A stretch of DNA of 50,581 bases from Chiloscyllium plagiosum (taxonomy: Eukaryota): assembly GCF_004010195.1 (NCBI RefSeq), contig NC_057718.1, forward strand, positions 86,372,318 through 86,422,898, read 5' to 3'. A program made the translations under genes and the position numbers. A model generated the notes under the pieces. It was not told where the DNA came from, did not search any database, and saw only the letters and a program-made list of their open reading frames with translations. Of this stretch, positions 2,961 to 50,534 are shown one piece after another (within the stretch, counting starts at the first letter, position 1; the number at the start of each line of letters is the position of its first letter).

Positions 2961-3232
2961 TTGTTAGAGTTTGCAGCATCCAACAGGAAGGGGAATCCAT
3001 GAAATGTTTCCCAAAGGGACAAGGATATGGGGAAAGGAGAGAGAGAAATGGGTGTGAGTGGATCATTCTGACAGGAGCCAGGGCAGGTCTGAGAAGTTCA
3101 GTGGTCATTTTCCTGCCTCCAGTTCTATAATTTTAATGTTTCTGCTCCAGTGCTTCGGCTGTGACTTATCAAGTGTAAGTAAATCAATTCTGTTTTTCTT
3201 CACCGCTATACATTATACTCAGTGATGTAATC

Positions 3233-3317
3233 TGTTTACTCCAGTGGCTGGAACTAATTACAATGGTTACATAAGCCTCCTGGGCTCAGTGAGTGTCACT
3301 CACCTGGATTCATAAAT
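3233..3317 (+). promoter_or_regulatory. Putative promoter of receptor A: TGTTTAC, AACTAATT and CATAAAT
   Basis: TGTTTAC at 3233, AACTAATT at 3252 (same 19-nt offset as in the three paralogs), TATA-like CATAAAT at 3311, 85 nt before the ATG. Confidence 0.5.
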
Positions 3318-3395
3318 GGCTTCATTGACTGAATGAGCTCAGAGTGTTAATGAAACCTGTTTGATGCTGAAGGACACTCAAATTCACCACTCAAC

Positions 3396-3477
3396 ATGAA
3401 TCTGGTGGATCTAATGTTTCTGCTCATTGATATTGAACCTATTTTCTATCCCATCCTTGGGGTCACTGGAGTTCTGT
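3396..3477 (+). CDS. Receptor A exon 1 (GPR139-like class A GPCR; N-terminus and first half of TM1)
   Basis: ATG 3396 encodes MNLVDLMFLLIDIEPIFYPILGVTGVL plus 1 nt, followed by donor GTGAGT at 3478; splices in frame (phase 1) to exon 2; homologous to exon 1 of the paralogs. Confidence 0.85.
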
Positions 3478-5599: not shown

Positions 5600-6495
5600 C
5601 TAACCTAATCGCAATCATGACACTGTCACGAGGGAAGTGTGGTCTTTCTAAAGGTGTCACTTGGTACCTGATCGCTATGGCTGTAGCAGATCTGCTGGTT
5701 GTCATTATTCAGGTCATACTGGACAAGATGAATCACTTTTATCTACACATTGTATTCTTCTACAGCCCTCCTGGTTGTAGCATCAGAGACGTCATTGGTT
5801 CCACAGCCGTAAGTAGCTCAGTCTGGCTCACAGTCACCTTCACCTTTGACCGAATGGTGGCTATTTGTTTCCAGAAACTGAAGAGAAAATTCTGCACTCA
5901 GAGAAATGCAGCTGTCATTATCACAACTGTCAGTTTACTGAGTTTATTAAACAAAATCCCACTATATTTTAAGTATGAACCATACTTTTGCAAATTTACC
6001 CATAAATACATGCAGTACCCTGCATGGATAGCTTTTGACTGGGGGGATCGTATTTTAACTCCAGTGCTCCCTTTCTTCCTGATCCTGCTGCTTAATGCTG
6101 TCACCGTCAGACACATCCTTCTGGCTAGTGCAGTCCGCAGGAAGCTGAGAGGACAACAAAACGGGGATAAGCCGAATGATCCAGAAATGAAGAATCGAAG
6201 ACGATCCATCATTTTGCTCTTTGCCATATCGGGCAGTTTTATCCTGTTATGGATCACTCGTGTCATAATTCTCGCGATTCAGCGACTTACTGGGTGGTAT
6301 ACATTAACATCAGATGGTTATTGGGTGGGAGATCTCATAGGAGCAATGCTTCAGTTATCCAGCTCCTGCAACAACACATTTATTTACGCAGTCACACAGA
6401 GCAAGTTCAGAGAGGAGATGCTGAATACTGTGAAATATCCCTTCATCACCATCCAGAATTCCATTAAACGACGGGAACAAAGCTGGTCAATGTAA
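5600..6495 (+). CDS. Receptor A exon 2; intact probable GPR139-like GPCR, 325 aa spliced
   Basis: Pyrimidine tract plus CAG acceptor ending 5599; (S)NLIAI leads into ORF 5617-6495 with MAVADLL (TM2), FTFDRMVAIC (DRY-like), PFFLILLLN (TM5), FILLW (TM6) and NNTFIY (TM7). Confidence 0.9.
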
Positions 6496-6677: not shown

Positions 6678-7570
6678 GAGTCATAGAGCCATGGAGATGT
6701 AGAGCATGGAAGCAAACCTATTGGTCCAACTCGTCCATGCCAACCAGATATCCTAAATTAATCTAATCCCCTTTGCCAGCACTTGGCCCACATTCCTCTA
6801 AACTCTTCCTATTCATTGACCCATCCAGATGCCTTATATAATGTTATAATTGTTATAATGTCTTCACTGTTTCCTCTGGCAACTCATTCCACACACACAC
6901 CATACTCTGTGTGAAAACATTGCTCCTAAAGTCTCTTTTAAATCTTTCCCCTCTCACCTTAAACATATCCCCTTTATCTCTGGACTCCCCCACCCAAGGG
7001 AAAAGACCCTATCCATGTCCTCCATGATTTTACAAACCTCCATCAGGTCACATCTCAGTCTCTGATGTTTCAGGGAAAACAGCCACAGCCTATTCAATCT
7101 CTCCCTGTAGTTCAAACCCTCCAAACCTGGAAACATCTTTGGAAATCCTTTCTGAACCCTTTCAAGTTTCAGGATAGCACGTTAGCAGGGAGACAATGTT
7201 TCAGTATTGCACACAATATTCCAAAAGTGGCCTAACCAATGTCCTGTACAGCAGCAACATGCCCTCCCAACTCCTGTACTCAATGGTCTGACCAATAAAG
7301 GAAAGCATGCGAAGGGAGATAGTTCTTCACTATCCTATCTCCCCGCGACTCCACTTTCAAGGAACTATGAACCTGTACTTCAAGATCTCTTTGTTAATCA
7401 ACTCTCCCCAGGATCTTACCATTAATTGTATATGTCCTACCCTGATTTGCCTATCAAAAATGCAGCACCTCACATTTATCTAAGTTAAACACCATCTGCC
7501 ATTTCTCGGCCCATTGGTCCATCTGATCAAGATCCCATCATATTCTGAGGCAATCTTCTTGGCTCCAATT
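6678..7570 (-). mobile_element. CR1 LINE 3' fragment
   Basis: Minus ORF PGLEGLNYRERLNRLWLFSLKHQRLRCDLMEV; GAGTCATAGAG tail at 6678. Confidence 0.9.
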
Positions 7571-7884
7571 TTGGCATCAATTTTGTTCTTCACACTTGGC
7601 CCATTATTGTTTGGGGGATTTTATGTAAATTTCCACTTCAATTTTTCAATAATGATTCTTGCTCAATATATGTCATGTTGATTTTTGTCTAATTGTACAA
7701 GACCAACTGAGTTTAAGACTGTATTTTTGAATGCCATTAACATGATTTAGAAAGAATAATAATTATAACAGAGCCATCACCTACAACTGGCTCTATCATT
7801 GGCTTCATGACTGGTGAGTGATGGTGTCGTGCAAGACACAATAGTAAGATCTTAGCTCTGATTACAACTTTGGCTCCCCATAAT

Positions 7885-10127
7885 TCTATTTGTCTTAAAA
7901 TAGTTACAGGAAATGATAGGCCTTGTATAAAAGTTAAAGTTCTAAATTGGAGTAAGGCCAACATTGATGGCATAGCACAGGAACTTTCAAAAGCAGATTG
8001 GAGTAGACTATTTGCAGTTAAAGTGACAACTGGCAAGTGGGAGGCTTCCAAAAGTGAGATAACGAGAGTTCAGAGGCAGTATGATCCTGTTAGAATCAAG
8101 GGTAAAGTTGGTAGGAGTAGGGACAATAGATAAACAGAGATATTGAGGCTCTAGTCAAGAATGAGAAGAAGCCATGTATCAGATATAGGCAACTGGGATC
8201 AAGTGAATCTCTTGAAGACAATAAGGGTATAGGGCATTCTTAAGAGTGAAATCTGGAGGGTAAAGTGGGGATACGAGATAGTCTTGGCAGATTAGGTTAA
8301 TGATGAACCAAATAGTTTCTATGATTACATTGAGGGCAAAAGAGCAGCTTAGGTGGGAATATGGCCTCAAAAAGATCAACAAGGTCATCAATCCATGGAA
8401 CCACAGGCAATGGGTGAGATCCTAAATGAATATTTCACTTCAGTATTCACTCTGGAGAAAAGCATGGAAGCTAACAAACTCAGGAAAATAAATATTCACA
8501 TCTTGAAAACAGTCAACATTACAGAAAAGGAGGTACTGGCAAGTCATAGAAGGGATGAAGGTAGCTTAATCTCTGGGTCTTGATCAAGTGTATCGAGGGA
8601 TGAAATTGTGCAGCCCATAGCAGAGATATATGTATCATCTGCAGCCACAGCTGAGGTGCCAGAAGACTGGAGGGGGGCTAATGTTGTGCCTTTATTTAAG
8701 AAAGGCTTCAATGAAGAACCAGAGAACTGAAGACCAGTGAGTCTGATGTCAGTGATGGGTAAGTTGCTGGAGGGGATTCGCAGAGACAGGATCTACACGC
8801 ATTTGGAGAGGGAAAGACTGATTCTGAATAGTCAGCATGGCTTTGTGCATGGGAAATTGCGATTCACTAACTTGATTGAGTGTTACTGTGAGCAAGAAGT
8901 AGATGAAGGCAGAGCAGTAGATGTTGTCTACTGTTGTCTAAAGAGCAGTAGATGTTGGAGGTCTGTAGCAAAGCCTCCAAGAAGGTTCTGTATAGTAGCC
9001 TGGTCAGTATTGTTCGATCAAATGGGATCCAGGGGAAGCTTGTCAGTTGAATACAAAATTGACTTGAAGGTAGGAAACAGAGGGCAGTGGTGGTTGGTTG
9101 TGTTTTGGACTGGAGGCATGTGATCAGCGGAGTTCCAGTGCTAGGCCCACTGTTGTCTGTCTTTTATATAAAAGATTTGATGTGAATTTAGGAGGCATGG
9201 TTAGCATGTTTGTGGATAACTCCAAAATTGATGGTATCATGGAGAGTGAGGAATTTTATCTAAGAGTAGAACAGGATTTGATCAACCTGGCAGTGGGACA
9301 AGAAATGGTAGATCGATTTTAATTTAGATAAATGTAAGGTGTTGCATTGTGGGAAGACAAACAAGAGCAGGACTTACACAGTGAATGGTGGGGCCCTGGG
9401 GATGGGTGTAGAACAGAGAGACCTCGGGGTTCAGGTATGTAGTTCTTTGAAAGTTGTGTCACAGGTAGACAGAGGGGTAAAGAAGGCTCTTGGCACACTT
9501 GTCTTCATTGCTCAGATCGTTATGCAAAGGAATTGGGATGTCATGTTGTAGTTGTATAGGACATTGGTGAGGCCACTTTTGGAGTAATGTGGACTGTTCT
9601 AGTTGCCCTGCTGTAGGAAGGATGTTATTAAGGTGGAGAGGGTGCAGCAAAGATTTATAAGGATCTTCCCAGGACAGGAGGGTTTGAGTTATAAGAAGAG
9701 ACTGCATAAGCTGGGACTTTTTTCACTGGAATAGAAGGAGGTTGAGGGGTGACATTACAGAGGTTTATAAAATCATGAGAGGAACAGATAAAGTGAATAA
9801 CAAAGGTTTTTCCCTAGAGTTGGGGAGTTCAAAACTAGAGGGCGTAGGTTTAAGGTGAGAGGAAAAAGATTTGAGAGGGACCTGAGGGGCAACATTTTCA
9901 TGTAGAGGGTGGTTCGTATGTGGAATGAATTGCCAGAGAAATCGGTGGATGCAGGTACAGGTACAATCTTTAAAAGATATTTGGACAGATACAGGAATAG
10001 GAAAGGTTTAGAGGATAATGGGCCAAAAGCTGGCAAATGGGATTAGTTTAGCTTAGGAGATTTGGTCGGCATGGATGAGTTGGACCGAAGCATCTGTTTC
10101 CATGCTGTATAACTCTATGACTCTATG
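7885..10127 (+). mobile_element. Long decayed CR1 LINE ORF2 with 3' tail
   Basis: Fragments VLNWSKAN, ILNEYFTSVFT, SLMSVMGKLLE...SQHGF, MFVDNSKI and QRDLGVQV; tail CTCTATGACTCTATG. Confidence 0.9.
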
Positions 10128-10129
10128 GG

Positions 10130-15527: not shown

Positions 15528-16369
15528 TGAAAAATGTGTTGCTGGAAAAGCGCAGCAGGTCAGGCAGCATCCAAGGAGCAGGAGAATCGACGTTTCGGGC
15601 ATAATCCCTTCTTCAGGAATGAGGAGGGTGTGCCAAGCAGGCTAAGATAAAAGGTAGGGAGGAGGGACTTGGGGGAGGGGCGTTGGGAATGTGATAGGTG
15701 GAAGGAGGTTAAGGTGAGGATGATAGGCCGGAGAGGGGGTGGCGGCGGAGAGGTCAGGAAGAAGATTGCAGGTCAAGAAGGCGGTGCTGAGTCCAAGGGA
15801 TGGGACTGAGATAAGGTGGGGGGAGGGGAAATGAGGAAGGTGGAGAAATCTGCATTCATCCCTTGTGGTTGGAGGGTTCCTAAGCGGAAGATGAGGCGCT
15901 CTTCCTCAGACGTCATTTTGCCATGGTCTGGCGATGGAGGAGGCCAAGGACCTGCATGTCCTTGGCGGAGTGGGAGGGGGAATTGAAGTGTTCAGCCACG
16001 GGGTGGTTAGGTTGGTTGGTCCGGGTGTCCCAGAGGTGTTCCCTGAAACGTTCCGCAAGTAGGTGGCCTGTCTCCCCAGTATAGAGGAGGCCACATCGGA
16101 TGCAGCAGATGCAGTATATGATGTGTGTGGAGGTGCAGGTGAATTTGTGGCGGATATAGAAGGATCCCTTGGGGCCTTGGAGGGAAGTGAGGGGGGGAGG
16201 TGTGGGCGCAAGTTTTGCATTTCTTGCGGTTGCAGGGGAAGGTGCCGGGAGTGGAGATTGGGTTGGTGGGGGGTGTGGACCTGATGAAGGAGTCGCGGAG
16301 AGAGTGGTCTTTCCGTAACGCTGATAGGGGAGGGGAGGGAAATCTATCCTTGGTGGTGGGGTCTGTTTA
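15528..16369 (-). mobile_element. 5'-truncated Penelope-like element with GIY-YIG domain and 15-bp target-site duplication
   Basis: FTCTSTHIIYCICCIRCGLLYTGETGHLLAERFREH...PVAEHFN; ACCTTAAAATTGAGC at 15513-15527 and 16370-16384. Confidence 0.9.
15584..15621 (-). ncRNA. Minimal type I hammerhead ribozyme motif in the Penelope terminal repeat
   Basis: Minus strand CATTC-CTGAAGA-AGGGATTATGCCC-GAAAC-GTC-GATTC: CUGANGA core, stem II (one mismatch), GAAA, palindromic mini stem III, GUC site. Confidence 0.6.
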
Positions 16370-16690: not shown

Positions 16691-18354
16691 AATTAGCATT
16701 GACCTCTGAGGACAGAATTGTCATATTCAGTAGATTCATTTGAATGCTTTATTTCCAATCATTTTTTTAAAACATATTTGACACATTGAATAATTGCAAG
16801 ACATGAATGCATTGCTGCATATCTAAAATTTTCTCTGAATTTAGTCTGAGCCAATGCATAAAGCAGTTGAAACATATCTCCACTACAGGTTGCGATTAGT
16901 AAGTGATTAGTATACTGATCTGGCTCGTAATGCATATGTGTAATTCTAGAAATCAGGATAAACACAGTATATGGCATCCACAGCACGATGAAAGTGCCAG
17001 AAAGAGTGAACAGTAAAGTGATGGATTTCCTTCGGCTCGGCATCTCTGGATCATCACTGTTCTGGTAGTTGTGTTGACCTTGCAGTGCTCTGCGGGTTTG
17101 ATTCGCCATCACAATGTGTCCGACAGTCAGTGCGTTGAGCAGTAAAATGAGAAAGAATGGCAATAGTGGGTTTGAAATTGCATCATGCCAGTCAAAACTG
17201 ATTCATCCTGGCAAAATAAAACAGTCTGGTTTGAAATGAGCGCCCCAATTGTTAATGATATAGGTTGGCTCATAGTACACGGGGATGTTTTTGAAACAGA
17301 ACACTACACACATAGTCACTATCACCACAGCTGCAGTTTCCTCCCTGCAATACTTTGCTCTCAACCTCTGGCAACAAATGAGGACAAAATGATCGACAGT
17401 GAAAGCGACCGTGAGCCAAACAGAGCAGTCATCAGCTGTGTAGTTGATCACCTCATTGATGCTCCTTATTGAGGTGAAGTGTAGAAATGAAAATGGGAAA
17501 TAGCAGTAAAGCATGTAGTAGATTATCACATTGGAAATAATGAACAGGAGATCAACTGTCGTCATACCCACCAAATAAAGAGTGATCCCTTTGGACAGAC
17601 CACAGCCTCCACAAAATAGAAGGACAATTGTCAGGAGGTTAGCTACAAAGAAAAGAGCAGAATCTCCAGATTAATAACACAACATTGTTTGGAAATTATG
17701 GCACAAAACCAGGTAATTTAGTCCAATATGTCTCAGTTGAGATTCACACTGCAAATATGTTTCCTCCCACTGACTTCATCTTACAATATTGAGATATTAT
17801 TTCTTTCAGCCTCATGTAGTTACTGAGATTTCTCATCAGGCAAGCTCACAAATGTGTAGAAATATTGCACAGATTGGAAGGAAGCAAATCTATTTCTCAA
17901 ACTAGAATCCCTTTACAGAGACGGATTGAGTGGGTGTACCCCACCACCACTTTGCCTTATGTCAGTCTATAATTAAACAGAAGGGTGGGTGGGGCTGGGA
18001 GGGGCTGCCTCGTTTGAATGTTGACTAACTTACATACACTGAAGCTCATGGTGAGCTCAGTTGACCACAATTGTGTGGGATCCATTCTCCTATCCAGAGG
18101 TTCCACAGACAATAACAGAATGGGAAGGGGGGTTTCCAGCAGTGTTATGTCAGGGGCACTGAGACGGATAAAAATCCAACAAAGTCTTTATAAGTGGAGC
18201 GGTTGGATGTAGTCAGTGATTTTCCTCATGAAGGTGGAAGTATTGAGCTGTTTTTTATTTTGACAATTTTGTGATATTCGGTGGGGACAATAAAAACATG
18301 ACGGAGGAGAGACAAGGCTATAGGCCTTGATATAGGGCTGTGATTAAGTCCAAG

Positions 18355-22340: not shown

Positions 22341-22664
22341 TTCCTCATGTCCTCATGGAACTAAACTAAAATTCACAAATTACAGCATGAGCTGTTTCTT
22401 GTAGGAACACCTGAAACTGGATCCAGCATGAGGAGAGAAAGAGGGAGAGTTTATACACTGAGAGATATATCAGGGGAAAGAACAGAGTGAAAGTGGGATT
22501 GAAAAGATAACACAACCTGCTTCAGCTTCTTACCAGGAACTCCGAAAATTGCGAGGAAATGGTAGTAAGTGAAAGCTATCTGTTCAATTGTTGGTCATTC
22601 CATTTTCAGAGAGAGGGCGATATCAATTGTCGTCCACAGATCTGAATAATTGGACATTCATCTG

Positions 22665-22740
22665 TTATATAAAGCAACTAAACCTCCCTTTTGTTAGGTT
22701 GCAGAGAGAGTGAAATTAGTTTGTGGTCTTTGAACAAACA
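22665..22740 (-). promoter_or_regulatory. Putative promoter of B: TGTTTGTT, AACTAATT and TATATAA
   Basis: Minus-strand TGTTTGTT starts 22740, AACTAATT starts 22721, TATATAA 22671-22665. Confidence 0.6.
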
Positions 22741-22923
22741 GGTACAGTTAATTTTAATGGATATTACACAATACAATCTTCACCTACACTGGAAGATTGA
22801 AGGAGAACAATTGGGCCAGGTCCATCTCAGGGCTCCTTGCTCACTCTCTTAGTGCTCTCTACACGGATGCTCACACCATCCCTGCCTTGCCTTGACTTTC
22901 TCACTTTGTCCCCTCACCCACAC

Positions 22924-25920
22924 AGTCATAGAGCTGTACAGCATGGAAACAGATCCTTGCGTCCAACTCGCCCATACCAAACTGACATCCCAAGTTAATC
23001 TCGTCCCATTTATCAATATTTCGTCCTTATCCCTCTAAACCCTTCCTGACCGTATTTTGATGCCTCTAAAATGTTGTTATTGTACCCGCCTCCACCACTT
23101 CCTCTGGCAGCTCCTTTCTTACACACACCACCCGCTGCGTGAAAATGTTGCCTTTTCAGTCATTTTAAAGCTCAGCCCCTCACCTTAAACCTATAGTCTC
23201 TAGTTCTGGATTCCTCTACCCTGGGGAAAAGACCTAAAGCTCATCACCATATAAATGCCCTTTATGATTTTATAAACTTCTATAAGGTCATCCCTCAGCC
23301 TCCAATGCTGCAGGGAAATTAGCCCCAACTTGTTTAGCATTTCCCTGTAGCTCAAGTCCTCTCATTCTGGCAACATACCTGTAAATATCTCTTGAACCTT
23401 TTCAGATTTCATGTCAGCCTACCACAGCAGTGAGACCAGAACTGAATGCAATACTCCAATGTCCTGTACAGCCACAATATGACTTCCTCTCAATTCCTGC
23501 ACTCAGTGCACTGACCAATAAAACCAAGTTTACCAAACGCCTTCTTCACTAACCTGTCTACCTATGAAGCCACTTTCAAAGAATTATGAACTTGCAGTCC
23601 AAGAACTCTTTGCTCAGCAACAATCAGCACGACTTTATCATTAAGTGTATAAGTCCTGCCCTAATTTATCTTTCCATAATGCAACACTTCACATTTATCT
23701 AAGTTAAACTCCATCTGCAGCTCCTTGATCCATTAGCCCACCTGATTAAGGTCCCACTGTACTCTGAAGTAACCTCCTTGGCCCTCCACCACACCACCAA
23801 TTTTGACGTCACCAGCAAACTTACTAACCATTCCTGCTGCATTCATATTCAAATAATTTATAATAATGACAAAATGCAGTGGACCCAGCACTGATCCTTG
23901 TTGCATATCACTTGTCACAGGCATCCAGGCTGAAAAGCAAACCTCCACCACTCCCCTCTGTCTCCTACCTTCGAGCCAGTTCTTATCCAAATGGCTAGTT
24001 CTCCCTGTGTTCCATGTGATCTCACCTTGCTAATCAGTCTACCATGCAGCACCTTGACAAACGCCTTAGTGAAGTCCATACAGATCACATTCACTATTCT
24101 GCCTTCACCAATCCTCTTTGTCACTTCAAAAAACTCAATCAATTTAATCAGACATGACTTCCCACGCACAAAGCTAAGTTGAATATCAGGAATCAGTCCT
24201 TGCCTTTGCAAAACCCAGCCCTCAGAATCTCCTGCAACAATTTGCTCACCACTGATGTCAGGTTCACTGGTCTATAATTCCCTGGCTTTTCCATACCACC
24301 TTTCTTAAAGATTGGCATCATACTTGCCAACCTCCAGCCTTCCAGCACCTCACCTGTGGCTATCAGTGGTACAAATATTTCAGCAAGAGGCCAGCAATCA
24401 CTTCCCTAGCTTCCCAGAGTTCGAGGGCACACCTGATTAGAACTTGGAGATTTATCCACCTTTTTGCATTTTAAGTTGTCCAGCATCTCCTCTTCCATTA
24501 TTGTGGACAATTCTGAACGCTTGTTATCTCATTTTTGAAGGCTTCCCGTTTTCCAGCTGTCCCTTTACCTGCAAATACCCCCCTCACCCCACCCCCACCC
24601 CCATGAATGTTTGCAAGTTTTTTTGCCTAATATCATGAAAATTGGTCTTTCTCCAATTTAGAACTTTAACTTTTAGATCCGATCTATCCTTTTCCATCAC
24701 TCGTTTAAAATTCATAGAATTATGATCACTGGCCTCAAGGTGCTCCACTCACTGACACCTCAGTCACCTGCCCTGTCTTATTTCCCAAGAGAAGGTCGAG
24801 TTTTGCTCCTTCTCTAGTAGGTACATCCACATATTGAATCAAGAAATTTTCTTGTATGCACTTAACAAAGTCCATTCCATCCAAACCTTTAACACTAAGG
24901 CAGTCCAGGTCTATGTTTGGAAAGTTCAAATTCCCAACCATTACTACGGTATTATTCCTACAGATTACTGAGAGTTCTTTTCAAATGTGTTTCTCAATTT
25001 CCCCGCTGACTGTTGGGGGGTCTATAATACAATCCCAATAAGGTGGTCATCCCTTTCTTATTTCTCAGTTCCACCCAAATAACTTCCCTGGATGTACTCT
25101 CCAGAATATCCTTCCTAAGTATAACCATACTGTTATTCCTGATGAAAAACCCCACTACCCCTCCTCTCTTGCCCCCTTTGTAACCTTCATATAACACCTA
25201 TACCCTGGGACATTTAGCTGTCATTTCTGTCCATTCCTGAGTCACACCTCTGTATTTGCTATGATACCCCAATCCCAAGTTCCCAACCATGCCCTGAGTT
25301 CATCTGCCTTACTTGTTAGGCCTCTTGCATTCAAACAAATGCTGTTTAGTTTATCAGTCCTATCTCATTTTCTGCTTTGTTCTTGCCTGCCTTGATTGTT
25401 TGGCTGGCTCCTTTTCCCAATTGAACCAGTCTCAGACCAATCTCCTTTCTCACCACCTCTGTGACTAATTTAAATCCTCCCGAGTCGCTCCAGAAAATCT
25501 CCCCACCAGTATATTATTCCCCTTCCAATTCAGGTGCAACCTGTCCCTCTTGTGCAAGTCACTCCTACCCGAGAAGAGATTCCAAGATCCAAAAATGTGA
25601 ATCCTTCTCCCCTTCATGAGCTCCACAGCCACACATTCATCTGCTCTATCTATTCCTACTCTCACTAGCATGTGACACCTTGAGGACCTACTTTTTAACC
25701 TCCTTCCTAATTTCTTGTATTCCCCCCTCAGAACCTTTTCTCTTCTTATGTTGTTTGTTCCAATATGTACAATGGCCTCCTGCTGTTTCTTCTCCACTGT
25801 ACGACAATTCTGCACCCTCTCCAAGACATCCTTGACCCTGACACCAGATAGGAAACACACCATTCTGATGTCTCATTCATGGCTTCAGAAATCTCTGTCT
25901 CTGCCTCTGACAAGACAGTC
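22924..25920 (-). mobile_element. Long CR1 LINE with ORF1 SGNH-esterase, APE endonuclease and RT remnants (internally deleted)
   Basis: CFLSGVRVKDV...IVHIGTNNI...DRLHLNWKG (esterase); VELRNKKG..LLGLYYRPPNS and VGNLNFPNID (APE); MDFTKAFVKV, QGSVLGPL and SKFAGDVK (RT). Confidence 0.9.
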
Positions 25921-27764: not shown

Positions 27765-29590
27765 TGTTACATGGATCTTGAAAGTTAAGAATATCAATCT
27801 CCTTTCTGGACAGGATCCAGGTAAATTAATATTGACAAAATATGTTATGGTGACACTCTACAGTAAACATTGTTTAAAGAAGTTAAAGTTGAAAGGCTTA
27901 GGAGAAAGGAATGTATTTTGAGTTTTGTGGATGTGACTGAAGTGCTTTCTTTGTGAGACGCCATCAAACATTCACTGTGGATATTGGAAACTTCATTCAA
28001 CAAGGCTGCTTGAAATCACTCGGCTGGTAAAAACGGCTTACTCCACCATCGATCCTGCTTGATGAGGCTCTTGTTTTATCTGGTTCAGTTGGAGGAAAGC
28101 CGGCCAAGAACAAGCAGAGTTGGAGGAAAGCATATTATGAACAAGCTGCCCAGCTGTTGTTTTGTGAAAAGAAATCCCTTTGTATCGGCTCAGGATGAAA
28201 CCTATTCATTCTTTTGAAATTGTGATTGAAAAGGCATCTCAAGATAATATTTCCTGAATGAACAGGATCTGGACCAGATGGGCCAATGGGCTGAGAAGTG
28301 GCAGATGGAGTTTAATTCAGATAAATGCCAGTGCTGCATTTTGGGAAAGCAAATCTTAGCAGGATTTATACACTTAATGGTAACGTCCTAGGGAGTGTTG
28401 CTAAACAAAGAAACCTTGGAGTGCAGGTTCATAGCTCCATGAAATTTGACTCTCAGGTAGATAGGATAGTGAAGAAGGTGATTGGTATGCTTTCCTTTAT
28501 TGGTCAGAGTATTGAGTGCAGGAGTTGGGAGGTCATGTTGTGGCTGTACAAGACATTAGTTAGGCCACTGTTGGAATGTTGCATGCAATCCTGGTCTCCT
28601 TCCTATCGGAAAGATGTTGTGAAACTTAAAAGGGTTCAGAAAAGATTGACAATGTTGTTGCCAGGGTTGGAGGATTTGAGCTATAGGGAGAGGCTGAACA
28701 GGCTGGGGCTGTTTACCCTGGAGCATTGGAAGCTGAGAGGTGACGTTATAGAGGTTTACCAAATTATGAGGGGCATGGATAGGATAAGTAGACAAAGTCT
28801 TTTCCCTGGGTGTGGTAGTCCAGAGCTAGAGAGCATAAGTTTAGGGTGAGAGGGGAAAGATATAAAAGAGACCTACGGGGCAACGTTTTCACACAGAGGA
28901 TGGTACATGTATGGAATGAGCTGCCAGAGGAAGTGGTGGAGGCTGGTACAATTACAACATTTAAAAGGCATTTGGACGAGTATATGAATAGGAAAGGTTT
29001 GGAGGGGTATGGGCCGGGTGCTGGCAGGTGGGACTAGATTGGGTTTGGATATCTGGTCCGCATGGATGAGTTAGACTGAAGGATCTGTTTCCATGCTATA
29101 CATCTCTATGACTCTATGACTCTCTAACTGTATCTGCAAGGTGCAGAGAAAACCCATGGGTGAGGATTGACTTCACAACACATGACAGACTATCAGAGGA
29201 ACAGACTCTGGAATATGTTACACGTTATCCTTTTGCTTTCAAGAATAACCCATTGACAAAGTGTTTTCAGTTTTCTCTGCAGAGAAATCTTTATTCCCTC
29301 TTTTTCTGAAATGTGTGTGTATATTTGTATGCGTTTTGGGAAGTTAATTGGATGGATAAGCATTTATACTTCCACATTACTGGCTGTGTTTGATAGCCAA
29401 TTACTACAAGATAATTACATACATTCATTTTGATAACAAAACCATAATTGTGTTTATTATGAAACTGGGTTGATAGATCTTTTTATTCAAACCTGTGTCT
29501 GGTCAGTCATCTTGGTAATTGGAGAAAATCTTTTTGTTTGATGTTGTGACCCATCGAATGAAGGTCCTCCTTCAGCCTCAGTTGTAAGTG
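27765..29590 (+). mobile_element. Probable solo LTR upstream of C, interrupted by a CR1
   Basis: Starts TGTTAC, collinear with 41511-43521, ends near CCTTCAGCCTCAGTTGTAA. Confidence 0.5.
28261..29123 (+). mobile_element. CR1 LINE 3' fragment
   Basis: ORFs 28325-28849 and 28846-29037 (LYKTLVRPLLECC, WNELPEEVVEAG); CTCTATGA tail. Confidence 0.92.
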
Positions 29591-29993
29591 TTAAACAATA
29601 TCTCGGCGACAGAAATTCAGTCTTTCTCTCCTGGAGAATTTGTGTCGTGAAGCTTCAGATTTGAGATTTGAGATAAGTAGAACAGAAAAGCTTTGTGTTT
29701 AGTGTCAATTGCTCTGAATATGGTCATCAATGGAGGGCAAAATTATTTCAAAGACCAACCAGGAACATCAATTTCATTCAATTTAACATTCCAGATTTAA
29801 TCAATTAATATATTCTCAAGGACAATGCAATTTCAAACTTTACTTTACTAAAGGTTGAATATTCTTTTTTCAGTTCATAAATACCCATGTATTCATAATA
29901 GGAATATTTTCTGAACACTATTCTTTATTTGGAATTATTTCATTTCAAACTGTGTAAATATATTGCCTAATTTCTGGCAACATTAATTGTCCA

Positions 29994-30073
29994 TTTTTGT
30001 TCAAAGAGCTTGAACTAAGTCTGCTCCCTCTGCAAATGAAGAGAATCACAGGGGGATTAATTGTTTTATATAA
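29994..30073 (+). promoter_or_regulatory. Putative promoter of C (motifs mutated: TTTTTGTT, AACTAAGT; TATATAA 30067)
   Basis: Collinear with the D promoter at 43885-43964. Confidence 0.55.
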
Positions 30074-30151
30074 GAAGCTGATACAAATGAAGAATGTCTG
30101 CTGCTTCAGGTCTGTCTCACTGATTGGTTGCATCTTCCAGTTCCTTCCAAA

Positions 30152-31441
30152 ATGGAGCTGATTGATCTATCAATAATTGAGCAGACAACTTTCATTTACT
30201 ATCATTTTTGTGGAACATTTGGAGTTCCTGATAAGAAACTGAAGCTGGGTATTTTGCATTTTGTCTAAAAATTCAAACTTTAATTTTGTTCTTGCTCTTG
30301 ATGCATCAATCAAACATAGAATGTGAAATGATCTCTCTTAATGCTGCATCAAGTTTAGGTCTTCCTTAATGTAGAACACTTCCTACTTTATGCAATGATG
30401 GCCTTCTTGCAGAAAACATCTTGGGATCGAGAAGATGACAGATTTCAGCACTGGTTTGTAAAAAAATGTCCCTTAGTTTAGAGGAACATGTGTTTGCAGC
30501 TCTTTTTCCCTTTGTGTTTTTCTTGTGTCATGTTTGGATCTGTTATGACTCATTTAGAGGTGCTGATTGTTGTGGTTAGTCAACACCGAAAATCATCTAT
30601 CTATCCTCTGGCTGCCAGGATTGTGGAATGAAACAACGTAGAGGATGTTTGCTCTTTGTCTCATTGTCATGGTGCCATATATTCTGGTTTGAGAGAAGAA
30701 CTTTTCTCTTCATGATCAGTACAGTATTATCAAACCAGCACAGACAGTGTGAGCTTGTCACATTGGGAAATTAATAAGAAAGAAGTGTGAGGAAAAGGAT
30801 AAATTATAATGGTGAGATGAAGTTAGATGAAGGAAGTGTATATGAAGCATGAATAGTAACATAAAACTATTGGAATGAATGGTGTCATTTTTACTGCAAT
30901 TTCCAAATTAGACTTTGCATTTCATTTGGAGATTTGACTCATTTCTTTGTAGCTAACTTCCTGACAATTGTCCTTCTGGTCCAAGGAAGCTGTGGTCTAT
31001 GCAAAGGTGGGCATGACAACAGTGGACTTGCTGGTCCTTATTTTCAATGTAATAATTTATTACATACTTTATTACTATTTCCCATTTTCACTTTACTTGG
31101 TGGGCATGACAACAGTGGACTTGCTGGTCCTTATTTTCAATGTAATAATTTATTACATACTTTATTACTATTTCCCATTTTCACTTTTACACTACACTTC
31201 CATAGTGAGCATCAATGAGGTGATCAACTATGTGCTTGTTGACTGCTCTGTTTGGCTGACAGTCGCTTTCACTGTCGATCGCTTTGTCCTCATTTGTTGT
31301 CAAAAGCTCAGAGAGAGGTATTGCAGGGAGCAGACTGCAGCTGTGATTATAACAACCCTGTGTGTTGTATCATGCATCAAAAATATTCCGCTGTACTTTG
31401 CTTTTGAACCTGGCTATATAATTGACAATGTAGAATGGACT
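30152..31441 (+). pseudogene. Receptor C: GPR139-like GPCR pseudogene (exon 1 30152-30230, exon 2 from 30953, cut by Penelope at 31442)
   Basis: Close paralog of D; donor GT changed to AT at 30231; about 17-nt frameshifting deletion near 31006; 93-bp tandem duplication; homology stops at ...IIDNVEWT. Confidence 0.9.
31006..31191 (+). repeat. 93-bp tandem duplication inside C exon 2
   Basis: GGTGGGCATGACAACAGTGG... starts at both 31006 and 31099. Confidence 0.95.
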
Positions 31442-32351
31442 CTGAAAATATGTTGCTGGAAAAGCGCAGCAGGTCAGGCAGCATCCAAGGAGCAGGAGAA
31501 TCGACATTTCAGGCATGAGCCCTTCCACAGGAATGAGGAAAGTGTGCCAAGCAGGCTAAAATAAAAGGTAGGGAGGAGGGACTTGGGGGAGGGGTGTTGG
31601 AAATGCGATAGGTGGAAGGAGGTTAAGGTGAGGATGATAAGCAGGNNNNNNNNNNNNNNNNNNNNNNNNNNNNNNNNNNNNNNNNNNNNNNNNNNNNNNN
31701 NNNNNNNNNNNNNNNNNNNNNNNNNNNNNNNNNNNNNNNNNNNNNNNNNNNNNNNNNNNNNNNNNNNNNNNNNNNNNNNNNNNNNNNNNNNNNNNNNNNN
31801 NNNNNNNNNNNNNNNNNNNNNNNNNNNNNNNNNNNNNNNNNNNNNNNNNNNNNNNNNNNNNNNNNNNNNNNNNNNNNNNNNNNNNNNNNNNNNNNNNNNN
31901 NNNNNNNNNNNNNNNGGAGGGGAGGGAAATATATCCCTGGTGGTGGGGTCTGTTTGGAGGTGGCGGAAATGACGACGGATGATACGATGTATATGGAGGT
32001 TGGTGGGGTGGTAGGTGAGGACTAGTGGGGTTCTGTCCTGGGGCTCAAGGGCAGAGGAGCGGGAAGTGGAGGAGATGCAGTGGAGAGCATCATCGACCAC
32101 GTCTGGGGGGAACTTGCGGTCTTTGAAGAAAGAGCCCATCTGGGTTGTTCGGTATTGGAACTGGTCCTCCTGGGAGCAGATGCGGCAGAGACTAAGGAAT
32201 TGGGAATATTGGATGGCGTTTTTACAGGGGGCAGGGTGGGAGGAGGTGTAGTCTAGGTAGCTGTGGGAGTCAGTCGGTTTATAGTAAATGTCTGTGTTGA
32301 TTCAGACGCCCGAGTTAGAAATGGAGAGGTCTAGGAAGGGGAGGGAGGAGT
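31442..32351 (-). mobile_element. Penelope-like element inserted in C (N gap 31646-31915 inside, 32352-32851 adjacent)
   Basis: Terminus CTGAAAATATGTTGCTGGAAAAGCGCAGC as at 15527; ORF GSFFKDRKFPPDVV...PLVLTYHPTNLHIHRIIRRHFRHLQTDP. Confidence 0.88.
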
Positions 32352-37320: not shown

Positions 37321-38135
37321 AGCCTCCACCACTTCCTCTGGCAGCTTATTCCATACACGTACCACCCTCTGTGTGAAACGTTGCCCCTTATGACTCTTTT
37401 ATATCTTTCTTTCCCCTCTCACCCTAAACCCTCTAGTTCTGGACTCCCCGACCCCAGGGAAAAGACTTTGTCTATTTACCCTATCCATGTCCCTCATAAT
37501 TTTGTAAAGCTCTATAACGCCACCACTAAGCCTCCAATGCTCCAGGGAAAACAGCCTCAGCCTGTTCAGCCTCTGCCAATAGCTCAAATCCTCCAACCCT
37601 GGCAACATCCTTGTAAGTCTTTTCTGAACCCTTTCAGGTTTCACAACATCTTTCTGGTAGGAAGGAGACCAGAATTGCACGCAATATTCCAACAGTGGCC
37701 TAACCAATGTCCTGTACAGCCGCAACATGACCTCCCTACTACTGTACTCAATACCCTGACCAAAAAAGGAAAGCATACCAAACGTCTTCTTCACTATCGT
37801 ACCTACCCGAGAGTCAAATTTCAAGGAGTATTGAACCTGCACTCCAATGTCTCTTTGTTCAGCAACACTCCCTAGGACTTTACCATTAAGTGTGTAAGTC
37901 CTGCTAAGATTTGCTTTCCCTCACATTTATCTGAATTAAACTCCGTCTGCCATTTCTTAGCCCATTGGCCCACCTGGTCAAGATCCTGTTGTAATCTGAG
38001 GTAACCTTCTTCGCTGTCCACTACATCTTCAATTTTGGTTATCATCTGCAAACGTACTAACTATACCTCTTATGCTCGCATCCAAATCATTTCTGTAAAT
38101 GATGAAAAGTAAAGGACCCAGCACCAATCCTTGTA
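37321..38135 (-). mobile_element. CR1 LINE fragment
   Basis: ORF 37399-37842 LYRTLVRPLLEYCVQFWSPSY. Confidence 0.92.
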
Positions 38136-43410: not shown

Positions 43411-43884
43411 TGTGGCTACTTAGTCATTTTGGCAAATGGAAAAAGTCTCCCTATTTCATATTCTGACCTGTGGAATGAAGGGACGAGAAAATAGTACACG
43501 CCTTCAGCCTCAGTCATAACAAACGTTAAACAACAATTTGTTTCCCGAAATTCAATCTTTTCCTCACGGAGGATTTTTGTCGTGAATCTTCAAATTTGAG
43601 ATGAACAAAGCAAAGCTTATGTTTGGTGTGAATTTCTCTGAATATTGTCATGAACACAGGACCTATCAGCAACATCTATTCCATTCAAACCTAAAATTCC
43701 TAATTTAATCAAGTAATATATCCCAAGGACAGTGCAATTTTAAACTATACTTTGCTAAAAGTTGAAAATTGTTAATTCAATTGATAAATATTCATTTAAT
43801 AATGATCTGGATATTTTCAGTTGGAATTGATACAATTCACCTGTATAAATGTATTGCCTAATCTCTGGCAACATTAATTATACA

Positions 43885-43964
43885 TGTTTGTTCAAGGAGC
43901 TTGAACTAATTCTGCTCCCTCTGTAAATGAAGAGAATCACAAGCCGGATACGTGTTTTATATAA
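43885..43964 (+). promoter_or_regulatory. Putative promoter of D: TGTTTGTT 43885, AACTAATT 43904, TATATAA 43958
   Basis: Motifs and spacing conserved among paralogs; TATA starts 86 nt before the ATG. Confidence 0.65.
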
Positions 43965-44043
43965 GAAGCTGATATGAATGAAGAATGTCTGGTGCTTCAC
44001 ATCTGTTGTCACTGATTGGTTTCATCTTCTAGGTCCTTCCGAG

Positions 44044-44122
44044 ATGGAGCTGATGGATCTGTCAATAATTGAGCAGACAACTTTCATTTACTATCATTTT
44101 CTTGGAATATTTGGAGTTCCTG
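44044..44122 (+). CDS. Receptor D exon 1 (GPR139-like GPCR)
   Basis: GAGATGG start context; MELMDLSIIEQTTFIYYHFLGIFGVP plus G; donor GTAAGA at 44123. Confidence 0.9.
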
Positions 44123-44846: not shown

Positions 44847-45751
44847 CTAACGTCCTGACAATTGTCCTTCTGATCAGAGGAGGCTGTGGTCTGTCCAAAG
44901 GGATCACTCTTTACTTGGTGGGTATGACGATAGTGGACTTGCTGGTCCTTATTTTCAATGTGATAATCTATTACATATTTTGTTACTATTTCCCATTTTC
45001 ACTTTTACACTACACTTCCATAGCGAGCATCAATGAGGTGATCAACTATGTGCTTGTTGACTGCTCTGTCTGGCTGACAGTCGCTTTCACTGTCGATCGC
45101 TTTGTCCTCATTTGTTGTCAAAAGCTCAGAGAGAGGTATTGCAGGGAGAAGACTGCGGCTGTGATTATAACAACCCTGTGTGTTGTATCGTTCATCAAAA
45201 ATATTCCACTGTACTTTGCTTTTGAACCTGGCTATATAATTGACGATGTGGAGTGGACTGTTGATTTCAAGCCAGCATATTTTACATGGCCAGGATGGAT
45301 CACCTTTGACTGGATTGATATAATTTTAAACCCATTGTTACCATATTTTCTCATTTTACTGCTCAATGCACTGACTGTTCGTCACATTGTGATGGCTAAT
45401 CGAACCCGCAGAGCACTGCAAGGTCAACGCAACACCCAGAGCAGCGACGATCCAGAGATGCAGAGCCGAAGGAAATCCATCATTTTACTGTTCGCCATTT
45501 CTGGTACTTTCATCGTGCTGTGGATGCCTTCTGTTGTATTCTTCCTCATTTCCAGAATTACAGACAGACATTATGAACCAGATGAATACACAAACCCATT
45601 CCTTATCGCAGACTTCACAGCAGATATGTTCCAACTGCTGAGCTCCTGTACAAACACGTGTATTTATGCATTTGCTCAGACTAAATTCAGGGAGAAGTTG
45701 GGAAATGCAATAAGGTATCCATTTATTTCAATCATTAAACATGTCAAATGA
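44847..45751 (+). CDS. Receptor D exon 2; intact probable GPR139-like GPCR, 327 aa spliced
   Basis: TTTTTGTAG acceptor; uninterrupted (A)NVLT...MTIVDLL...FTVDRFVLIC...PYFLILLLN...FIVLWMP...TNTCIY...KFRE; 724-bp phase-1 intron. Confidence 0.92.
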
Positions 45752-49845: not shown

Positions 49846-49997
49846 TAACCAATCGCATGGCTGTTGGCAGGAAGAGGACCTTTGTTCTTTGTCCACAGAC
49901 CAATCAGTTTCACATGAAAACAACCCCTTAGCTCCAGTTCACCTGCACACTGTTGGAACACACAGCCAGACAAACAGGATACACAATTGGTATCAAT

Positions 49998-50534
49998 TTA
50001 GATTAGATTAGATTAGATTAGATTAGATTAGATTAGATTAGATTAGATTAACACTGTTGGAACACACAGCCAGACAAACAGGATACACAATTGGTATCAA
50101 TTTAGATTAGATTAGATTAGATTAGATTAGATTAGATTAGATTAGATTAGATTAGATTAGATTAGATTAGATTAGATTAGATTAGATTAGATTAGATTAG
50201 ATTAGATTAGATTAGATTAGATTAGATTAGATTAGATTAGATTAGATTAGATTAGATTAGATTAGATTAGATTAGATTAGATTAGATTAGATTAGATTAG
50301 ATTAGATTAGATTAGATTAGATTAGATTAGATTAGATTAGATTAGATTAGATTAGATTAGATTAGATTAGATTAGATTAGATTAGATTAGATTAGATTAG
50401 ATTAGATTAGATTAGATTAGATTAGATTAGATTAGATTAGATTAGATTAGATTAGATTAGATTAGATTAGATTAGATTAGATTAGATTAGATTAGATTAG
50501 ATTAGATTAGATTAGATTAGATTAGATTAGATTA
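49998..50534. repeat. (TTAGA)n pentamer array, interrupted once by a 50-bp duplicated flank
   Basis: Perfect repeats 49998-50050 and 50102-50534; 49947-49996 equals 50051-50100. Confidence 0.97.

Follow-up and report, generated by a model that had tools for sequence, protein, structure and literature searches.

Mouse olfactory 'Greek Island' enhancers carry a composite motif in which Lhx2 and Ebf sites are adjacent; intergenic enhancers are enriched for it relative to promoters (Monahan et al. 2017, PMC5608512). Odorant receptor promoters contain homeodomain and O/E sites (PMC6744719), and DNA-guided forkhead-homeodomain pairs (such as PITX-FOXA/FOXD) form joint motifs in which gaps above 5 bp are rare (PMC12119339). 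On the side of the receptors, GPR139 and GPR142 are described as two-exon receptors activated by L-Trp and L-Phe, with expression in the brain and in the pancreas and gut (PMC7318219), receptor sets of fishes and the coelacanth have been named GPR210A/B (PMC6504862), and cartilaginous fishes are described as poor in olfactory receptors (PMC8455134).

The window considered here (the whole stretch of DNA that was analysed, 50,581 nt from Chiloscyllium plagiosum) holds four receptor loci, A, B, C and D, each preceded by a copy of a 27-nt element made up of a TGTTT half-site, a 14-nt spacer and a second half-site, AACTAATT. This element resembles the Lhx2/Ebf motif in its homeodomain core, in its fixed arrangement with a second site and in belonging to a large clustered GPCR family, and differs from it in being without Ebf, in its 14-nt gap and in its promoter-proximal position (137-163 nt from element start to ATG across the four genes). 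Specifically, no match to the Ebf (O/E) consensus lies within 300 nt of any of the four ATGs, and one weak match is found at -323 in D. The analogy with olfactory composite motifs, which the first-pass annotation had drawn, thus fails on its Ebf half, and the shark element, given the absence of Ebf and its promoter-proximal site, is not the olfactory Lhx2/Ebf composite; its general mode of action may still be similar. With odorant receptor promoters it shares the setting of an AT-rich promoter with a homeodomain site in a clustered receptor family; unlike them, it has a forkhead-type site in place of O/E, and the shark genes are not odorant receptors. As for the DNA-guided pairs, the 14-nt gap falls outside the usual range (up to 5 bp), so that direct forkhead-homeodomain pairing is not the natural reading. 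In place of the free spacer of usual length expected of a cooperative pair, a palindromic 14-nt spacer is found in which A and D are identical at 8 of 14 positions, and the N14 of the first-pass annotation was inaccurate in this respect.

Like GPR139 and GPR142, the shark genes are two-exon class A receptors; unlike them and the GPR210A/B sets, they are part of an expansion in chondrichthyans, for which the nearest outgroup proteins come from salamanders, the coelacanth and teleosts. In the literature searched (mostly papers free of subscription), no description was found of a comparable promoter motif, of this shark receptor family, or of the ligands, tissue or promoters of the chondrichthyan expansion, and GPR gene names were not found in passages from two shark genome papers.

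The four receptor genes and their family

All four genes (Table 1) have the phase-1 intron and 7tm_1 domain of a two-exon class A receptor, with open frames in A and D; B and C are pseudogenes. C had been called a dead gene from the outset, and this holds (lost donor GT, frameshift, duplication, truncation), but it is not the only one, as B carries stops at codon 3 and in exon 2. Exon 2 of C contains an exact 93-nt tandem duplication at 31006-31187, and is followed by a repeat (31445-31915) with 92% similarity to 15531-15731. As an N gap lies next to it, some of the damage in C could be an assembly artefact. Among the other repeats, a LINE-like copy at 22917-24384, about 180 nt upstream of B's motif, cuts off B's further upstream region and has other copies at 6678-7585, 8620-10129, 28260-29122 and 37321-38134, and a TTAGA satellite of about 87 copies occupies 49947-50534, preceded by a 104-nt duplicated unit.

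The genes fall in an expansion annotated 'probable GPR139' (clade SH-aLRT 96 in a quick tree), whose size comes to 1,360 clusters (90%) among 2,598 candidates when A is the query, and to 1,154 clusters at E < 1e-60 among 2,487 when D is the query. The nearest relatives of the window proteins are carpet-shark proteins (85-88%), and the best solved-structure match of the family profile is GPR139 (E 5e-20). In a tree with bony-vertebrate outgroups, the clade of D, which comprises B, C and D, contains two chimaera proteins (SH-aLRT 99), and the clade of A, made up of sharks and rays, is separate from it (SH-aLRT 99); the trees are quick searches without bootstrap on 68 (first) and 32 (second) hand-picked rows. 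Since chimaera proteins sit in D's clade and A's clade stands apart, the split between A and D predates that between chimaeras and elasmobranchs, which took place about 400 million years ago. At fourfold sites the identity of A and D is 21/55, near saturation, with 64/87 for B and D and 37/44 for C and D. None of the 213 candidate stretches from metagenome contigs and none of the 30 from viral contigs was confirmed as a family locus, and a degenerate version of the motif pattern had no match in metagenome contigs. A translated form of the motif was likewise absent from the N-terminal extensions of the 20 extended proteins (of 375), with a further 15 of 218 viewed.

Table 1. Positions in the window of the 27-nt elements, TATA boxes and exons of the four receptor loci.
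Feature	Position	Strand	Remarks
Gene A, 27-nt element	3233..3259	+	forkhead-like 3233-3239; imperfect inverted repeat 3238-3254 (5/7 pairs); CTAATTA 3254-3260
Gene A, TATA-like box CATAAATG	3311..3318	+	1 mismatch to the TATAWAWR consensus
Gene A, exon 1	3396..3477	+	ATG to phase-1 donor GTGAGT
Gene A, exon 2	5600..6495	+	with exon 1, open frame of a class A receptor (7tm_1)
Pseudogene B, 27-nt element	22714..22740	-	both half-sites intact; central dyad broken (3/7 pairs)
Pseudogene B, TATA box	22664..22671	-	
Pseudogene B, exon 1	22534..22603	-	in-frame TGA at codon 3
Pseudogene B, exon 2	16759..17642	-	in-frame TGA 17205-17203
Pseudogene C, 27-nt element	29994..30020	+	1 change in each half-site; dyad 6/7 pairs
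Pseudogene C, TATA box	30067..30074	+	
Pseudogene C, exon 1	30152..30230	+	donor GT lost
Pseudogene C, exon 2	30953..31441	+	frameshift; 93-nt tandem duplication; truncated by a repeat
D-like block (putative promoter/5' UTR)	43841..44043	+	shared with B and C and with paralogue contigs from two related organisms
Gene D, 27-nt element	43885..43911	+	forkhead-like site; perfect 7-bp inverted repeat 43890-43906 with 3-nt centre; CTAATT
Gene D, TATA box TATATAAG	43958..43965	+	
Gene D, exon 1	44044..44122	+	ATG to phase-1 donor GTAAGA
Gene D, exon 2	44847..45751	+	with exon 1, open frame of a class A receptor

Position and composition of the element

A pattern scan of the window for TGTTT-N14-AACTAATT gives exactly three matches, namely the elements of A, B and D, so that the 19-nt register reported for them by the first-pass annotation is correct in all its coordinates; the observation that C keeps the spacing with both half-sites mutated was also borne out. 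No match was obtained in 100 shuffled windows (0/100), a figure that overstates the significance, because the pattern was picked post hoc and B, C and D are recent duplicates with alignable flanks. While AACTAATT alone occurs three times in the window, each time inside the elements of A, B and D, the shorter half-sites are frequent on their own (TGTTT 260 times, TAATT 147 times).

The placement of the element upstream of a TATA box and the first exon is constant, A's box being a variant. Specifically, the distance from element start to the start of the TATA box is 69-78 nt and that to the splice donor 206-244 nt in the four genes, and A is close to C and D in both of the longer intervals (163 versus 158-159 nt to the ATG, 244 versus 236-237 nt to the donor), which favours a selected element. 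A TATA-like box had been placed 50-59 nt past the start of AACTAATT, and it does begin there, at 59 nt in A, 50 nt in B and 54 nt in both C and D. The box is TATATAA in B, C and D; that of A, the variant CATAAATG, is weak and counts against a selected element.

With regard to the half-sites, TRTTTRY, which we take to be a forkhead-type consensus, is present in A, B and D and not in C, and TAATT, presumably a homeodomain core (Lhx2-type), occurs as CTAATT in A, B and D, is extended to the full TAATTA only in A and is changed in C. The first-pass identification of these two half-sites thus agrees with the consensus in A, B and D; the identity of the factors is a guess from the consensus sequences only. 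A scan of approximately 310-400 nt of upstream sequence in A, B and D found no forward-strand forkhead-type site other than that of the element, which again favours a selected element.

In the middle of the element, an inverted repeat with a 3-nt centre spans positions 6-22, with 7/7 pairs in D, 6/7 in C, 5/7 in A and 3/7 in B. One of the five pairs in A arises by a change on both sides, and a single compensatory change of this kind among four copies, for which our own count gives about 0.15, is weak evidence for the dyad; B has lost the dyad, which counts against a selected element. In a comparison by eye with the spacings of Ebf, STAT, HSF, p53, RFX, CP2 and nuclear-receptor sites, none fits the central dyad. 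In B (22719-22739, minus strand) the right arm has changed at three neighbouring positions. The ancestral dyad is thereby destroyed, and what remains is another inverted repeat, a perfect one of 6 bp formed with the forkhead site, as expected of a template-switch mutation. The whole module of A lies between the arms of a 6-bp inverted repeat (3226-3262) whose TAAT cores provide a homeodomain-like site on each side, and another inverted repeat, TTGCC-N8-GGCAA, lies just upstream of the motif in D (43854-43871) and C (near 29963-29980) and is absent from A and B. At the level of RNA, an Rfam search for structured RNA returned one chance-level match, outside the motif, and the z-scores of single-strand folding (-2.8, -0.9, -1.4 and -2.3) come from windows picked post hoc and are therefore not counted.

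Similarity between the two lineages and conservation within one of them

Because the flanks of B, C and D align throughout, by duplication, the four copies represent two independent lineages, A versus B/C/D. Across the element A and D are identical at 21/27 positions (shuffle p 0.003), with 18/27 for A and C and 17/27 for A and B; the best windows of the latter two pairs are not significant alone (p 0.12 and 0.81), and this counts against a selected element. A profile made from B, C and D only ranks the site of A first among the non-training sites of 99,062 positions, with 17.9 bits versus 12.4 for the next, in a scan whose window was picked post hoc. A fairer test takes the best ungapped window of the B/C/D upstream alignment and slides it anywhere over the 300 nt upstream of A. 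In this test the top match falls in the motif at every width, and at width 27 an equal score is reached by 14 of 804 real window segments, or by 5 of 804 with an offset up to 40. Widths 15 and 20 are not significant (225/804 and 178/804), and p at widths of 12-20 nt is 0.02-0.11, which counts against selection. Corrected over the six widths, p becomes 0.005-0.008 with an offset up to 10 and 0.013-0.014 with an offset up to 40, values that ignore the number of loci and patterns a scanning reader inspects. Taken together, the statistics are fair yet not overwhelming evidence, and the A match is probably real. Outside the element, neither the alignment of flanks nor the sliding profile over A's upstream 300 nt found further similarity between A and the rest, as the first-pass annotation had noted.

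Within the B/C/D lineage, the identity of D and B is 13/13 in the half-sites and 10/12 in the TATA segment, above that of the flanks (0.54-0.67), which favours a selected element; in the spacer it is 9/14, the level of the flanks. Of the 21 positions at which A and D are identical, B agrees with them at 17, which is not above the fourfold-site identity of 0.74 (p 0.33), and the fair conservation test of B against D gives p 0.26-0.33. Between C and D there are 2 differences in the 13 half-site positions, compared with 14-19% in the flanks (binomial p 0.6). The mutated half-sites of C had been set beside its death as a gene, and this argument fails, because the changes match flank divergence and B, equally dead, retains both half-sites.

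The D locus was also compared with two related organisms, in which it shows 22-24 differences in about 560 nt. Among the differences listed (40 of 602 rows) none falls in 43865-44000, and these are too few to read invariance of the motif from them. Paralogue contigs (about 88%) align from 43841 onwards in all three DNA runs compared; the block they have in common is wider than the motif, which is therefore not specially outlined among D-like paralogues.

Interpretation and meaning for the receptor family

The best explanation makes of the 27-nt stretch a proximal promoter element that selection has maintained from a time before sharks and chimaeras separated, a predicted function to which we assign a probability of about 0.6. 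A forkhead factor would bind its left end and a homeodomain factor its right end, a dimeric factor might occupy the inverted repeat in the middle, and the bound proteins would work through the TATA box, which begins 69-78 nt after the first base of the motif, with a predicted transcription start about 30 nt past that box, so that the gene would be expressed in a restricted cell type. The middle site and common descent are a likelier cause of the constant offset than direct contact between the forkhead and homeodomain factors. The 'fixed spacing' of the first-pass annotation thus survives as an offset, the 19 nt being kept, and not as a signal of a code, since an ungapped homologous match gives it by default. 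Transcript reads number 0 in about 6% of one single-cell run, a sample too thin to speak either way.

Against the promoter element stands, above all, the explanation by chance and descent, which we judge somewhat unlikely: the copies of B, C and D would be duplicates and the match in A a post hoc coincidence in AT-rich DNA. It draws on the flanks of B, C and D being alignable throughout, on the 14 of 804 unrelated segments whose fit to the B/C/D profile equals that of A, on the abundance of TGTTT and TAATT in the window and on B giving no significant independent support. However, the top match deviates from the expected register by no more than 4-5 nt, with the corrected p of 0.005-0.008 (offset up to 10), and the agreement of A and D reaches into the spacer. 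The spacer also bears on the distinctly improbable reading that forkhead and homeodomain sites are conserved independently of each other, with no spacing need and no third factor, the spacer being neutral and the dyad due to chance. Its 8/14 identity between A and D exceeds the 0.38 seen at fourfold sites, and no indel has entered it in either old lineage, both of which speak against this reading; B, in which both half-sites are retained with the dyad gone and whose spacer is no closer to D's than the flanks are, fits independent sites better. The latter would also agree with CAP-SELEX, where gaps above 5 bp between the 8-mers of cooperating factors are rare (PMC12119339).

Very improbably, CTAAT could be a branch point used in splicing out an intron that lies downstream of some hidden non-coding exon. 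The reading would account for the fit of CTAAT to the branch-point consensus, for the pyrimidine-rich run that comes next in B, C and D and for an AG 22-32 nt on, and it fits poorly because the AGs downstream are weak acceptors: in each of the four copies the AG that comes first reads AAG, with 7-9 pyrimidines of 14, as opposed to TAG or CAG with 10-12 of 14 at the true exon-2 acceptors. A full TATA box lies downstream in B, C and D, and TGTTT and the dyad are left unexplained. Scarcely credible is a relic of a palindromic transposon end or of a short gene-conversion tract, as could be suspected from the inverted repeat of the core and from the extra 6-bp inverted repeat that flanks A's copy, given that no further copy in the window reaches 19/27 against the copies of A, B or D, that no tandem repeat exists at the element and that A's flanks do not align with those of D.

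A more far-reaching form of the promoter-element explanation, which would make of the three-part forkhead/dyad/homeodomain module, about 400 million years old, a family-wide switch marking one sensory or endocrine cell type, appears quite unlikely. The family-wide code for one cell type that the first-pass annotation inferred has two independent lineages behind it, in a family of more than 1,000 protein clusters. If such a family-wide module were true, it would be a switch comparable to the homeodomain and O/E sites that mark olfactory neurons.

The 27-nt stretch is thus probably a real promoter element, very old, of a kind already known and present in two independent lineages. Since conserved promoter motifs in receptor families are already known, the element alone is a modest finding; its value lies in the handle it gives on a receptor family of cartilaginous fishes with more than 1,000 clusters. 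If the motif turned out to be widespread in this family, it would point to the cell type and the factors that use these receptors.
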